DNA of 12,453 nt from Methanocella sp. (GTDB lineage Archaea > Thermoproteota > Bathyarchaeia > Bathyarchaeales > Bathycorpusculaceae), in the NCBI GenBank assembly GCA_050261115.1, contig JBLNCY010000048.1:1-12453 (forward strand). Reading direction: 5' to 3'. How positions within the stretch are numbered: position 1 is the stretch's first letter; every line of letters starts with the position of its first letter. Below the pieces are notes generated by a model, which saw nothing but the letters and a program-made list of their open reading frames with translations, was not told the origin of the DNA and ran no database searches. Below are positions 3,030-11,482 of the stretch, piece after piece. Position numbers and translations under genes: made by a program.

Positions 3030-3158
3030 AAACTATGAAAACCAAAGGCTCAAAATAAGAAATTGTGGTAACCCTCCAACAATCACACAGAAGCAGCCTA
3101 GTGCTTAAGCAGTACATTTTTAGGGATAAACAAAGAAAGATGAATGTGGTGCACAAGC

Positions 3159-3440
3159 ATGAGTTGTTCTAACCAGAAATATCTTGCATTCATAAAAATC
3201 AGCCCCAACATGGCTGCAAAACTCTACGAACCCCTAATGGAATTCAGCGAAAACCCCATAAAAGGCGTCAAACTCGAAGAAGCCTTCCAAGTGTTTGGTG
3301 AATGGGACTTCGCGGTACTTTTCCAAGCAGACAGCAACGCTAATGCGCTTCATTTTGTGGGCGACAAAATCCGATTAGTCGAAGGCGTCTTAGAGACCTT
3401 TACCGTTCCACTAACGCCAGTTAAAGACTATCGAAAATAA
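3159..3440 (+). CDS. Stand-alone Lrp/AsnC ligand-binding (RAM) or GYD-like domain protein
   Basis: ~93 aa with YLAFIKI...GVKLEEAFQVFGEWDFAVLFQA...DKIRLVEGVLETFT, typical of the AsnC C-terminal ferredoxin-like fold, and no HTH. ATG 3159 follows GTGGTG; alternative start 3144. Confidence 0.75.
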   Translation: MSCSNQKYLAFIKISPNMAAKLYEPLMEFSENPIKGVKLEEAFQVFGEWDFAVLFQADSNANALHFVGDKIRLVEGVLETFTVPLTPVKDYRK

Positions 3441-3455
3441 CAAAAATGCGCCAGA

Positions 3456-4046
3456 TTAGGCGCTCAACTTTTCTCTTGGGAGAACAGCTATGGGCGGCTT
3501 AGTGGTAGCTGGTGGCAGCACTGGCGCTGTTTGTTGCGTTTCAGATTTTATTGGCACCGGGTATACGCTGTAGCTTATGCTGGGCTTGTATGGCACTGAA
3601 AGCATGGTCCAAACTTTATTGAGGTCGTCAAGGGACATGGCATCGAAAACGATTTTTATGCCTTCGCTACCGCTTTGACTTAAGCTACCCTGCAATGCTG
3701 AGACGGGGATAATCGGTCTTTCCGCGAGGATCTGCATGACTTTTCCTAGCAAGAGTTGGTCCATCTGGGGCGTCTTTGATTGTGGCGTTATGAGATAGCG
3801 TAGGCTTAGGTACATTAATGTTCGGGGCTCTCCGGGCTGCTCCGGCATGTTTCGCATGCTTGCACATTCAGTAACGCTGTATAGGAGCAATGAAATCTGC
3901 CCTGATGGCGCCTGGTTAGAGGGCGCCTGGAGAGTGACTAGTTCCTCAGTGTGCAGTAGCTTTTGAAGTTCAACGTCTGCTTTTATGCCGTCTGAGATTA
4001 ACTTGGCAAGGGTCTGGGTGACGCCGCCAATGTTGTCGCTACTCAA
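3456..4046 (-). CDS. DUF4255 / Pvc16-N (Afp16-like) tube cap / tail terminator protein
   Basis: Family-like blocks: IGGVTQTLAKLI, ISLLLYSVTE..SMRN, LSLRYLITP, QLLLGKVMQIL...P, SLDDLNKVWTML..PYKPSISYSV.PVPI; Pro/Thr-rich C-terminal tail. TTG start 12 nt after the tube-gene stop, with AAGGGA in the gap. Confidence 0.85.
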   Translation of the reverse strand: MSSDNIGGVTQTLAKLISDGIKADVELQKLLHTEELVTLQAPSNQAPSGQISLLLYSVTECASMRNMPEQPGEPRTLMYLSLRYLITPQSKTPQMDQLLLGKVMQILAERPIIPVSALQGSLSQSGSEGIKIVFDAMSLDDLNKVWTMLSVPYKPSISYSVYPVPIKSETQQTAPVLPPATTKPPIAVLPREKLSA

Positions 4047-4058
4047 AGTTATCCCTTA

Positions 4059-4514
4059 CTACTTTTCACGCTGCATTACTTCAAAAGCTATTTCTAGCGT
4101 TTCTATGGCTACGTCGTTGCCGAGGGCGTTGAGGTCTGGTGCTTTGTATTTGCTGGGCCAGGCATTAGTGAATACCCACTTGTTAACGTCGATACCCTCT
4201 TCGTCCACCAATGTTACGATAACGTTTCTTCTTGCCTGGTTGATTTTGCCCTGCTCAACCAGTTTACGCCAGTTATAGAGCTCCATGGATGAAGTCAACC
4301 CCCACTTTAAGACTAGATTGCTACAGCTTAAAAGGCCAGGCTGTTTTTGGCTAACGGTTGTGTTTTGACTTCCTTCCCGGTGCTCGATTACTTGGCTTGC
4401 TGACTCTGGAAGAATGACTTCTAAAAAGTTGACTTGGCTGATACCGGCTATTTCAACTCTAAATCGATTGTTTACATATGGATAGTTTCTTTGACTTGCA
4501 ACCTTTGTTGACAT
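4059..4514 (-). CDS. Tail tube protein, T4 gp19-like (eCIS Afp1/Afp5, Pvc1-type)
   Basis: 151 aa with YPY..NRFRVEIAG, VIEHREG, KQPGL...NLVLKWG, ELYNWR, RRNVIVTLVDEEG, W.FTNAWPSKYKAPDLNA.GNDVAIETLEIAFE, the hallmark motifs of eCIS inner-tube proteins. Confidence 0.92.
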   Translation of the reverse strand: MSTKVASQRNYPYVNNRFRVEIAGISQVNFLEVILPESASQVIEHREGSQNTTVSQKQPGLLSCSNLVLKWGLTSSMELYNWRKLVEQGKINQARRNVIVTLVDEEGIDVNKWVFTNAWPSKYKAPDLNALGNDVAIETLEIAFEVMQREK

Positions 4515-4548
4515 ACTTTTGCCTCTTAGCGGTATCTTTCTATGAATC

Positions 4549-4556
4549 TATATATA
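4549..4556 (-). promoter_or_regulatory. Probable TATA box for the tube-cap unit
   Basis: TATATATA ~35 nt upstream of ATG 4514, with SD-like AGAGG just before the start on the minus strand. Confidence 0.55.
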
Positions 4557-4656
4557 CATTCTTAAAAGTCAAGAAGCCACCCTATGCGGTGTGGTTGATT
4601 TTATACAGTCACGCAGGTATATACGCCAAATTCACTGGTATTGACTGGTGAAAAAG

Positions 4657-4869
4657 ATGGAAACAACAATAAACGTAAACGACCAGCAAGCCATGGAAAT
4701 CTGCGAAAATGTAGGTCGAACCCTCGTTGATGAGCTTGATAAAGATGAGGTATGGGACAGAGTTGAGCAAACTCTTCAAGACTACCTCAAAGCAAACAAC
4801 ATAAGCAGTAGCCCCACAGACATAACCGACAAAATAGAGTGGTCTGTGAAAGTCAAGCTAAAAAAATAG
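4657..4869 (+). CDS. Small acidic hypothetical protein (70 aa)
   Basis: ATG 4657 preceded by archaeal SD GGTGA (4647-4651), TATA-like elements upstream (TTTTATA, GTATATA), protein-like composition, T-rich run after the stop. No family recognised. Confidence 0.7.
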   Translation: METTINVNDQQAMEICENVGRTLVDELDKDEVWDRVEQTLQDYLKANNISSSPTDITDKIEWSVKVKLKK

Positions 4870-5211
4870 CGGCTAACACTTTTAGGCTTCTTTTGGAGGT
4901 GGGATTTTCCCCCAGAAAAATAAACGGGGCGAGTTTACAGTAGAACGGAAAAGCAAAAAGCGAGAGTCGTTTGAGGAACAGGACCATCGGGTAAACGTTC
5001 CTGCCGATGTTGGAGACCAAGAAAAGAGAGCGCTGGCACAGAAAGGAAAAGAGGCAACCGGCAGCTGGTAAAATAACGAGCACACCTAAAACGTATGTGC
5101 AATTTTTTATTAAAGCAGGCCAAAAACTGAACAATCTAACCGCCACTTCCCTGATTATCTGTAAATCTTTTATAGCTATACAATTGAATAACAGCTACTA
5201 AGTGGCACTTT

Positions 5212-9746: not shown

Positions 9747-10298
9747 ATGAATTTCCTAAATGACATCCCCACAGGCGATAACCCGCCGCAACTGCTAAAC
9801 ATGGTAATCGAAGTCACAAGCGGCTCCCGGGATAAATACGAATACAGCATCCAATGGGAAGCCTTTGTGCTTGACCGAATCATACCCTCCTCAGTTGTTT
9901 TCCCCGTCGAATACGGCTTTGTACCCCAAACTTGGTCAGAGGACGGCGACCCCCTAGATATCATGGTACTAAGCTATGCACCGCTCACAACAGGCTGCAT
10001 CGTTAAAGCCCGAGTCATAGGCGCACTGGTCATCGAAGACGAAGAGGGCCTTGACACAAAAATCCTCTCGGTCCTGACAAACGATGCCCGCTTCGAAGGC
10101 TACCACGACATCGCCGACGTGCACAAGAGCCGGCTTGTGGAGATTCAGGAGTTCTTTGAAACCTACAAGCGCCTTGAACCCCACAAATGGGTAAAGGTGC
10201 GAGAATGGAAGGACGCCACGGCAGCCCAAGAAGTGGTGAAGCTGGCCATGAAGCGATATTTGGAATTAGGTGTGACGCAGCGGGCGAACAGCAAATGA
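9747..10298 (+). CDS. ppa: Family I soluble inorganic pyrophosphatase
   Basis: VIEV..GSRDKYEY, LDRII....FPVEYGFVPQT, DGDPLD signature, D.K, IQEFFETYKRLE..KWV. Confidence 0.96.
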   Translation: MNFLNDIPTGDNPPQLLNMVIEVTSGSRDKYEYSIQWEAFVLDRIIPSSVVFPVEYGFVPQTWSEDGDPLDIMVLSYAPLTTGCIVKARVIGALVIEDEEGLDTKILSVLTNDARFEGYHDIADVHKSRLVEIQEFFETYKRLEPHKWVKVREWKDATAAQEVVKLAMKRYLELGVTQRANSK

Positions 10299-10848
10299 GT
10301 AGACAAATGGCTGTGCCGGTATTCCCAAACTCTATTGTCCTATTTGATACAAGTTTGCGCAGTTTTGACGCAGATATGTCACAAAACTTATTACTTTCCA
10401 ACCCCTTCTGTAATTTTGCAGGCCAAGGAGCAAGCTTTAGAAGCAATGCACTGAGGCACAGAAGTAACCCAATCCAAACAGCGAACGATTAAGGTTGCGA
10501 ACAAGACTTCGCCTCAATGGGCTGACCATTGCTTAATGTTGAAGCATCTAAGCTTTGAAGCTGCAGATTACAAGCGGCGAGGAATCTGCGGCGAAAATAA
10601 ACCATCGCTTAGGTGGGCCGTATCAACAATAAGGCTCAGACTTGGCCTGCACAATGAAGTGGACATAAACTCTAAAACTGGAAAAACCAACGATAGAATC
10701 TATCCTCCACTTTTTTCTCTTTTAAAATATTCAAATATTGTTACTCTTTTCCCTTGTTTAGTTTCCTACTATATAGATACTAAGAACAAGTAGTTAACGC
10801 ATCCTTTTGCTCAAGCAATGCGGATAACCATTTTTTATAACATATGAG

Positions 10849-10891: not shown

Positions 10892-11482
10892 TTAGCTGTG
10901 TGTGAATAGTGAGTCTTCGAGCGTTGGGTTTACGGATATATCGTATATTCTGTAGGTGAATCCTTCGACGGTGTATGAGTAATCTCCCATTCCGTTCCAT
11001 GATGCCAAGCTGCTAATGTATCCGGACCATGACTGTTTCCAAATGTCATATTGCATGTCGAAGTAGCTTGACATGTCAATCCATTCGCCATCGCCCGCAT
11101 TTGTCCAAGCCTCTTTTGTACCCGCATTGAAGATATAGATGCCGCTGCCTTCAGTGTCAGAGTATTCTATTCGCATCGCAAAATCGTCTCTTCCGGCATT
11201 CTTGCCCCAGAAAGTATAGCTTGCCTGCACAACGCCATTCTCTGCTACGCTAACGCTGTATTTTAGGCTGCTTGCGCCTGCAATATCTGGGGTTTCCGTT
11301 GATGATGTAGCACTAGGATCAGAGGTGCCACTAGGAGTAGGAGTTGGATTATCAGATGGGGCTGCAGGTTGACTCAAAAGTGCAAATGCACCCACTGCCA
11401 CTGCAACAACCACAATAACAACTACCACTGCCACAATCAACATTGTAGAAATTCCTGTATTATTTTTCTTTAAATCTTTCAA
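10892..11482 (-). CDS. Membrane-anchored surface protein, hypothetical
   Basis: Basic N-terminus LKKNNTG-IS, long hydrophobic helix (LIVAVVVVIVVVAVAVGAFALL), Pro/Ser/Thr linker, aromatic- and beta-rich domain ending NPTLEDSLF. TTG start preceded by AGGGAGA. Confidence 0.85.
   Translation of the reverse strand: MKDLKKNNTGISTMLIVAVVVVIVVVAVAVGAFALLSQPAAPSDNPTPTPSGTSDPSATSSTETPDIAGASSLKYSVSVAENGVVQASYTFWGKNAGRDDFAMRIEYSDTEGSGIYIFNAGTKEAWTNAGDGEWIDMSSYFDMQYDIWKQSWSGYISSLASWNGMGDYSYTVEGFTYRIYDISVNPTLEDSLFTHS

Follow-up and report, generated by a model that had tools for sequence, protein, structure and literature searches.

What use does an archaeal cell have for two genes of a contractile injection system (CIS) when nothing else of such a machine lies beside them? 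The question is raised by positions 3,456 to 4,556 of a stretch of DNA from Methanocella sp., assigned to the Bathyarchaeia (contig JBLNCY010000048.1 of assembly GCA_050261115.1), in which a gene for an inner tube protein is followed directly by one for the cap that terminates tube and sheath. The stretch, here called the window, is the entire 12,453-base contig C48 of a metagenome-assembled genome (MAG), G000, which comprises 2.15 Mb in 66 contigs and is 94.85% complete. We find that the pair belongs to a conserved, selected three-gene set, completed by a short sheath gene on another contig, without any other detectable CIS part. In our judgment the pair is probably, though by no means certainly, half of a dispersed and domesticated three-gene remnant of an extracellular contractile injection system (eCIS), one that consists of sheath, tube and cap and has no baseplate.

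Tube, cap and a lone sheath in the host genome

The genes of the set lie as follows (aa, amino acids; nt, nucleotides):

4059..4514, minus strand: inner tube gene (gp19 / CIS tube family), 151 aa, ATG start, matching PF06841 and TIGR02241
3456..4046, minus strand: tube/sheath terminator cap gene, 196 aa, TTG start, matching Pvc16_N only
4047..4058, minus strand: spacer of 12 nt from the tube stop (4059-4061) to the cap start (4044-4046), with AAGGGA at 4052-4057
Contig C46:17495-18592, minus strand: sheath gene, 365 aa, PF04984 and PF17482, the only PF04984 site in G000

An initial annotation, made from the sequence of the window, had called a gp19/Afp1-type tube and a DUF4255/Pvc16-type cap with intact frames, 12 nt apart and tightly coupled; the coordinates bear out the layout, and profile searches agree with both calls. 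The tube scores 130.3 bits on PF06841 (Phage_T4_gp19; E 5.4e-38, cut-off 28.2), covering profile positions 2-133 of 134, and the cap 110.4 bits on PF14065 (Pvc16_N, DUF4255; E 1.1e-31, cut-off 27), covering positions 2-176 of 180; both scores lie far beyond chance. The tube also matches TIGR02241 (128.7 bits, cut-off 62.4) and a PHROG tail tube family (3e-11), and among solved structures it is closest to the AlgoCIS tube 7adz (5e-19), the Anabaena tCIS tube All3324, Pvc1 and Afp1. It falls below the NCBIfam CIS1_fam equivalog NF053769 (87.7 bits, cut-off 220), which places it in the wider tube family rather than in the narrow equivalog. NCBIfam gave no match for the cap or the sheath, and PADLOC gave none for tube, cap or sheath.

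For the cap, an alignment of 23 rows of relatives, used as a profile, matches the solved caps 7adz, 7b5i, 6j0f and 6rap (AlgoCIS, tCIS, PVC and AFP). An AlphaFold2 model of the protein (pLDDT 81.2, pTM 0.76, with the C-terminal tail 171-196 predicted to be disordered) retrieves CIS cap chains at ranks 1-6 of a Foldseek search of the PDB (E 4.5e-8 to 6.9e-5, TM 0.49-0.67); phage tail terminators come next, among them the one of an archaeal tailed virus (9fkb). As modeled, the cap has the fold of the solved CIS cap subunits, and each of the three proteins is an ordinary member of its own family. The best solved matches for all three come from Afp, PVC, AlgoCIS, tCIS and CISSc (for the cap, 7b5i, 9qgn, 7adz, 9gts, 6j0f and 6rap; for the tube, 7adz, 7b5h, Pvc1 and Afp1), systems that keep baseplate, spike, tape measure and ATPase in one cluster, whereas none of these is detectable in G000.

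PF06841 and PF14065 occur in G000 in the window only, and no CIS gene besides tube and cap lies on contig C48. A Pfam scan of its other genes upheld the housekeeping setting that the initial annotation had described (ABC ATPase, helix-turn-helix protein, M16 peptidase, radical SAM, pyrophosphatase); a 963-aa gene, called leucyl-tRNA synthetase by similarity without a Pfam scan, served as the comparator for blastp and identity. The sheath gene on C46 has NUDIX, HIT, Fe-S assembly and ABC-transporter genes as neighbors. Its alignments with Pvc2 (13-361 against 7-351 of 355) and Afp2 run over the full length, which makes it a whole single-domain sheath rather than a fragment.

The remaining parts of a CIS were sought in G000 by several routes. 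Profiles for gp25 (PF04965), Baseplate_J (PF04865) and Phage_GPD (PF05954) gave 0 matches at E<=0.1; PF19266 (CIS_tube, the Afp7-like tube initiator) and the class-B partner profile also gave none. A second route used the complete eCIS cluster of a congeneric genome, G062 (contig 7, ~317.7-338.4 kb), a cluster with relatives among methanogens and bacteria. Searches of G000 with the 20 proteins of this cluster (tblastn and phmmer) found three genes: the tube (by tubeA, 61% identical), the sheath core (50-55%) and the cap (35%). The sheath match covers the N- and C-terminal core, the middle of the G062 protein (94-552) being absent in G000; the second tube query falls on the same window tube gene; and the ATPase query finds only generic AAA domains of housekeeping genes on C12 and C3 (27% identity). 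Profiles built from 2 to 66 relatives per family recover the same three genes. Neither the G062 proteins nor the profiles detected GPD or base_V (spike) in G000, the PAAR spike tip not having been searched; the CIS_tube-LysM and p335 (tape-measure candidate) profiles gave nothing below E 0.08; and no Afp15-type AAA+ ATPase with an N-terminal winged-helix domain (WHD) was found. A match of the CIS ATPase profile on C12 (358 bits) was rejected as CDC48, with CDC48_N, CDC48_2, two AAA domains and housekeeping neighbors.

The G062 cluster resembles the G000 set in these identities and in its short, Pvc16_N-only cap (203 aa). It differs in having also a second tube, a 335-aa candidate tape measure, CIS_tube-LysM, GPD, base_V, gp25, two Baseplate_J proteins, a PA14 fiber-like protein, a WHD-AAA ATPase and a CarboxypepD_reg protein, and in its layout: an 817-aa sheath and one locus ordered cap-CarbReg-sheath-tube, against a 365-aa sheath, two contigs and the order tube-cap in G000.

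G000 shows none of the eCIS features baseplate, spike, initiator, ATPase and single cluster. The initial annotation had called the pair an orphan in a unit that could not be longer, which holds for the operon and for the absence of a CIS cluster and does not hold for the functional set, given the sheath gene on C46. The pair is not strictly orphan, yet G000 has no CIS locus for it to serve: a complete cluster elsewhere in the genome was looked for and not found, which leaves the suggestion of a spare tube and cap for such a locus without its object. Separately, two contigs of G000, C49 (L138:366-6104) and C27 (L137:12939-14126), carry tailed-virus head genes (terminase large subunit, HK97-type capsid proteins and cement protein), with no sheath and no gp19-type tube on either.

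Recurrence, descent and constraint within the genus

An even sample of 81 genomes of the genus, which are kin and whose counts are accordingly not independent, has 34 genomes with the tube, 32 with the sheath, 33 with Pvc16_N, 6 with Baseplate_J, 9 with gp25 and 12 with CIS_tube. Of the 81, 27 combine tube and sheath (a further 7 have the tube only and 5 the sheath only), and 20 of the 27 have neither gp25 nor Baseplate_J. An adjacent tube-to-cap pair is present in 11 genomes, G000 included; in all 11 both genes are intact (by first-start calls of open reading frames, ORFs) with a spacer of 6-19 nt, and compared with the window the orthologous tubes are 64-70% and the caps 39-51% identical. 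Ten of the 11 pair genomes also hold the short sheath, the exception being G092, which is 56% complete. Baseplate_J and CIS_tube are found in 0/11 and gp25 in 1/11 (G079), and the five near-complete pair genomes, one of them a single 3.04-Mb contig, contain neither PF04717 (base_V, 0/5) nor PF05954 (GPD, 0/5). Recurrence under purifying selection in genomes without sheath or baseplate, which the initial annotation had held out as support for a new system, came true as regards baseplate genes, G079 with its gp25 apart, and not for the sheath, which is usually present; this presence argues against the sheath-less nanotube that it had also proposed. Sheath genes are rare in the wider class, occurring in 7 of 151 sampled genomes, two of them from this genus.

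On contigs that hold both, the distance between pair and sheath is ~0.5-0.7 Mb (as in G067, G072 and G055). G092 is fully syntenic with the window, three more genomes keep the pair near leucyl-tRNA synthetase and the remaining pair genomes hold it in other housekeeping contexts; the neighborhood of the short sheath is common across the genus (NUDIX, HIT, ABC/MacB, DinB, fasciclin and complex-I-like genes). No conserved gene of unassigned identity travels with pair or sheath, and all Pfam-matched neighbors are housekeeping genes; several conserved neighbors, including some near the sheath, match no Pfam family. Conserved neighbors considered and ruled out as hidden CIS parts were PadR regulators, an LPG-synthase-like membrane protein, radical SAM, SufBD, a Cache sensor, heliorhodopsin, NUDIX, HIT, DinB, fasciclin, flavodoxin, complex-I-like subunits and a HerA-like ATPase. 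In G092 the leucyl-tRNA synthetase gene (L024:15385-17933) falls into about a dozen short frames, so the assembly looks frameshift-rich and other calls from it deserve caution.

The tubes of the 11 pairs group in a single starred clade (96/94*), whose sister is the sheath-adjacent tube of the G062 cluster, and 12 short sheaths form another (97/99*) beside the long cluster sheaths; sub-clades such as G055/G067/G072/G008 and G079/G094 are found again in all three trees (tube, cap and sheath). Scanning a contig collection with the cap alignment, we examined 80 loci of 174 relatives (a scan with the single cap sequence confirmed no relative). Most caps in these 80 loci sit in clusters ordered ATPase-cap-CarbReg-sheath-tube; the bare tube-to-cap pair appears at 10, all from Bathyarchaeia, most of them probably genomes already counted in the genus sample. 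Because its order is rearranged relative to the clusters, the pair is a derived operon and not what a flanking deletion of a cluster leaves. All three genes stem from a complete eCIS cluster like the one that G062 still has, and the set is vertically inherited in housekeeping neighborhoods of a Bathyarchaeia genus.

Purifying selection acts on each of the three. Over orthologue pairs with unsaturated synonymous divergence (dS 0.36-1.8), the ratio of nonsynonymous to synonymous rates (dN/dS, by YN00) lies at 0.04-0.16 in the tube, 0.14-0.27 in the cap and 0.11-0.27 in the sheath, the cap being the fastest-evolving of the three. Relaxed constraint in the window's lineage, which its long end branches might suggest, was rejected since its leucyl-tRNA synthetase is equally diverged (78% identical, against 92-93% among the others); its long branches match the divergence of the species.

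The pair is also present in public sequencing runs, 22 of the 24 listed being RNA libraries, from anaerobic digesters or sludge. Fourteen of the 24 contain at least half of the sampled words, and three of four runs examined, which come from different studies, have the two genes together on one contig with an identity of at least 99%. RNA-library contigs over the pair span 3163-4507, 3515-4513 and 3494-4279. A leaderless transcript, which the ends at 4507 and 4513 near the tube ATG might bring to mind, was rejected because such contigs do not show transcript ends and the Shine-Dalgarno (SD)-like motif is conserved. Bins 4577-4992 are uncovered in 4/4 runs, which carries no evidential weight.

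What the three proteins might build

If the three proteins act together, tube hexamers would stack into a hollow rod, a Pvc16_N hexamer would close one of its ends and the short sheath would polymerize around it. The product would be a capped rod of tube and sheath that assembles by itself and whose role would be structural, for storage or like that of a spring, and the cap ring, as the sole end-binding platform, might nucleate or anchor it. Without spike, baseplate, tape measure, fibers or loading ATPase, the set cannot be a classical triggered injector; its assembly and its function are what we infer. More tentatively, and as a possibility that we hold to be on the unlikely side, an injection machine may have been turned into a baseplate-independent, cell-owned sheath-tube rod whose assembly is started or anchored by an end ring and whose role is a non-injecting one, such as that of a cytoskeletal rod, a spring or a container. 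One lineage would use the Pvc16_N cap as this end ring, a second an Afp7-like tube ring.

The second lineage comes from sister genomes. Nine of them have a sheath and at least one tube and no Pvc16_N cap; the short-sheath orthologue is confirmed in two of the nine, G001 and G014. In five of the nine, and in G007 and G015 as well, a gp19-type tube of 165 aa, 30% identical to the window tube, is followed directly by a PF19266 (Afp7-like) protein of 225-256 aa (a weak match, E 1e-6 to 2e-5), and most genomes with this pair hold a sheath. Its loci are the following:

L009, L010, L011, L013, L019, L020 and L012, ~1465-1962 plus the next gene: 165-aa tube and PF19266 pair
L134:7137-8336 (G075): 165-aa tube and PF19266 pair, in the sole such genome with a Pvc16_N cap

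This parallel set in sister species supports the idea of a rod with an end ring, and it suggests a general rule by which each reduced set comprises two polymerizing proteins and one end ring.

To our knowledge, all contractile tail-like machines studied so far (phage tails, tailocins, eCIS, type VI secretion systems (T6SS) and thylakoid- or membrane-anchored forms) are built on a baseplate that nucleates and triggers them. Two known cases offer partial likenesses. The orphan hcp/vgrG islands of T6SS are contractile-machine genes away from the main cluster that serve a complete T6SS in the same genome; the genes of G000 are likewise dispersed, but no main cluster was found there. Polysheaths and sheath tubules arise from over-expressed sheath and polymerize without a baseplate, as contracted by-products without tube or cap, and we do not know of them as a selected, conserved gene set. 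They share with G000 a sheath without a baseplate, whereas G000, judged from its genes, has a conserved set that includes tube and cap.

Almost nothing is known of cell biology in the Bathyarchaeia, a group of abundant, uncultured anaerobes. Across about a dozen archaeal species of this group, selection has long kept the trio without detectable genes for baseplate, spike, ruler or ATPase, which implies either that the three proteins form a useful structure alone or that a non-homologous platform replaces the baseplate; either answer widens the view of how contractile machines assemble and evolve. If our reading is true, the rod would be the first contractile-tail derivative to work without baseplate or spike, and the trio is a very small three-gene system that is amenable to testing. 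In the literature covered, our searches found no description of a baseplate-less set. The cited portion of one paper notes an unusually short Bathyarchaeota sheath and does not mention its genomic setting (PMC9230969), a paper on haloarchaeal CIS concerns complete clusters in the portion cited (PMC11566945) and the main text of the Bathy-6 genome paper, as far as it is cited here, is silent on tube, cap or sheath genes (PMC11697101).

A number of observations weigh against a domesticated, baseplate-less remnant. Selection is shown for the orthologues and not for this copy, since dS is saturated or undefined in all comparisons with the window's own genes, and the genus counts come from related genomes. 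Tape-measure proteins diverge fast, which makes the negative for that part in G000 weaker than the others. The RNA-library contigs fit transcription, and DNA carry-over could produce them too, strand and ends not being given. The same short sheath orthologue occurs with the 30%-identical tube and no cap in G001 and G014, so the sheath may not be tied to a window-type tube and cap. Some copies in the genus are decaying: the tube genes of G048 and G087 have 5 and 2 stops, the G094 sheath is split into 87 + 291 aa, and contig 9 of G054 (~40-65 kb) holds a decaying eCIS cluster whose tube has 3 in-frame stops (gp25 and CIS_tube are each in two pieces there, and elsewhere in this genome a separate short sheath adjoins a tube). 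Contig 13 of G079 (L132:9642-10957) carries an orphan base_V (206 aa), a 96-aa ORF and gp25 (123 aa), no Baseplate_J being among them, in a genome that also holds the tube-cap pair and a lone sheath; this extra spike-gp25 piece means that some reduced sets may be stages of loss. Joint assembly of the three proteins is itself a conjecture from their genes, and a complex prediction for sheath and cap from alignments gave no verdict (score 0.00) and has no bearing on binding either way. In known CIS, the baseplate nucleates tube and sheath assembly, and we know of no precedent for extended assembly free of a baseplate.

Four other explanations deserve a place beside a domesticated remnant, and we rank them in the order in which they follow. 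The trio might still be an injector, the conserved trunk of a split locus whose baseplate, spike and trigger are too diverged or non-homologous, or lie on an unbinned plasmid or virus. Scattered CIS parts do exist in the genus, as the G079 trio of base_V, 96-aa ORF and gp25 demonstrates; extrachromosomal elements escape MAGs; and a first genome-wide pass missed weak CIS_tube matches that hmmscan later found. Yet queries from a cluster close enough to share a 61%-identical tube brought up nothing more by tblastn, phmmer or profiles, five near-complete genomes, including the 3.04-Mb contig, lack gp25, Baseplate_J, base_V, GPD and CIS_tube, and the Pfam-matched neighbors of pair and sheath are all housekeeping genes, a few conserved ones near the sheath matching no family; we consider a hidden baseplate unlikely. 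Slow decay of functionless relics of lost eCIS clusters, one of the options of the initial annotation, would explain the patchy distribution, the many different partial sets within the genus and the pseudogenes of G048, G087 and G054 together with the split G094 sheath. It is contradicted by dN/dS of 0.04-0.27 among the orthologues at dS 0.36-1.8, and it sits poorly with 11 of 11 pairs intact at spacers of 6-19 nt, a single rearranged pair inherited as a clade, a conserved SD-like motif, RNA-library contigs of the pair from three studies and window branches no longer than the divergence of its leucyl-tRNA synthetase (78% against 92-93%) leads one to expect, all of which makes relics improbable in our eyes.

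The other two concern what the proteins do. As an antiviral decoy, the host's tube, cap and sheath would co-assemble with infecting viral tails and terminate them early: what has been kept is exactly the polymerizing and the terminating parts, phage tail terminators, that of the archaeal tailed virus (9fkb) among them, resemble the cap in fold, caudoviral head genes lie on C27 and C49, and the cap evolves fastest, as an arms-race partner might. Against this stand genes of eCIS and not viral descent, a strongly constrained tube (omega 0.04-0.16), PADLOC without matches, viral contigs without sheath or gp19-type tube and, in the portion of the report cited, a siphovirus-like provirus without sheath as the one published for the group (PMC11697101); the odds for a decoy seem to us slim. 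The lowest rank, a distinctly doubtful one, goes to tube and cap alone as a capped Hcp-like ring or nanotube, a chaperone or container to which the sheath is functionally unrelated. Only tube and cap share an operon while the sheath lies on another contig, and the sheath orthologue occurs without a window-type cap in G001 and G014; but 10 of 11 pair genomes and 27 of 34 tube genomes have the sheath, the sub-clades are congruent across the three trees and the sheath is under comparable constraint.

Flanks of the pair and further observations

The features that surround the pair in the window are these:

4549..4556, minus strand: TATA-box-like TATATATA, 35-42 nt 5' of the tube ATG, read from the sequence
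4522..4527, minus strand: SD-like AAGAGG, 7 nt ahead of the tube ATG, read from the sequence
3434..3446, minus strand: T-rich tract TTTTT G TTATTTT, 10 nt past the cap stop, overlapping the 3' end of the convergent gene
3144..3440, plus strand: convergent gene, 98 aa, stopping 15 nt from the cap stop
4648..4869, plus strand: divergent small gene, 73 aa, no Pfam family

The initial annotation had given the pair its own TATA box and SD sequence, and both motifs are there. A GAGG/GGAG-like motif stands 5-12 nt ahead of the start in at least 8 of the 11 orthologous pairs; the orthologous upstream regions are A/T-rich, and a TATA-like motif of the TATATATA type is not strictly conserved among them, and the motif at 4549-4556 is a putative promoter element. 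The T-rich tract at 3434-3446 is a possible archaeal terminator. The 15-nt gap to the convergent gene is as described; its Lrp domain is weakly supported, the Lrp/AsnC-ligand and GYD matches of the 98-aa product being below cut-off (20.1 bits against Pfam cut-offs of 25 and 31.4). The divergent small gene does bound the unit on its other side, and a Cas11-like match of its 73-aa product (PADLOC, E 0.003) was taken as chance.

Lone Pvc16_N ORFs of ~288-316 aa occur in congeneric genomes without a tube or sheath match (G009, G013, G016, G020, G044, G047, G051, G053, G056, G063, G091 and G093; loci L068, L074, L082, L086, L089, L121 and L127), with no other CIS gene within 10 kb. They are apparently a cap-like domain used outside any CIS.

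Rfam and tRNA searches of the window gave no match. Between the pyrophosphatase gene (9747-10298) and a 196-aa gene (10892-11482), the intergenic positions 10434-10639 mark a stretch of ~206 nt that in RNA-library contigs of 4/4 runs shows a joint going back 206 (10639 to 10434), at a word depth of ~16,000-25,000 in two runs against 5-40 for the adjacent genes. It has no Rfam match and no tRNA, and its plus strand folds slightly better than shuffles (z -2.3), the minus strand not; it looks like a very abundant, possibly circular, small RNA.

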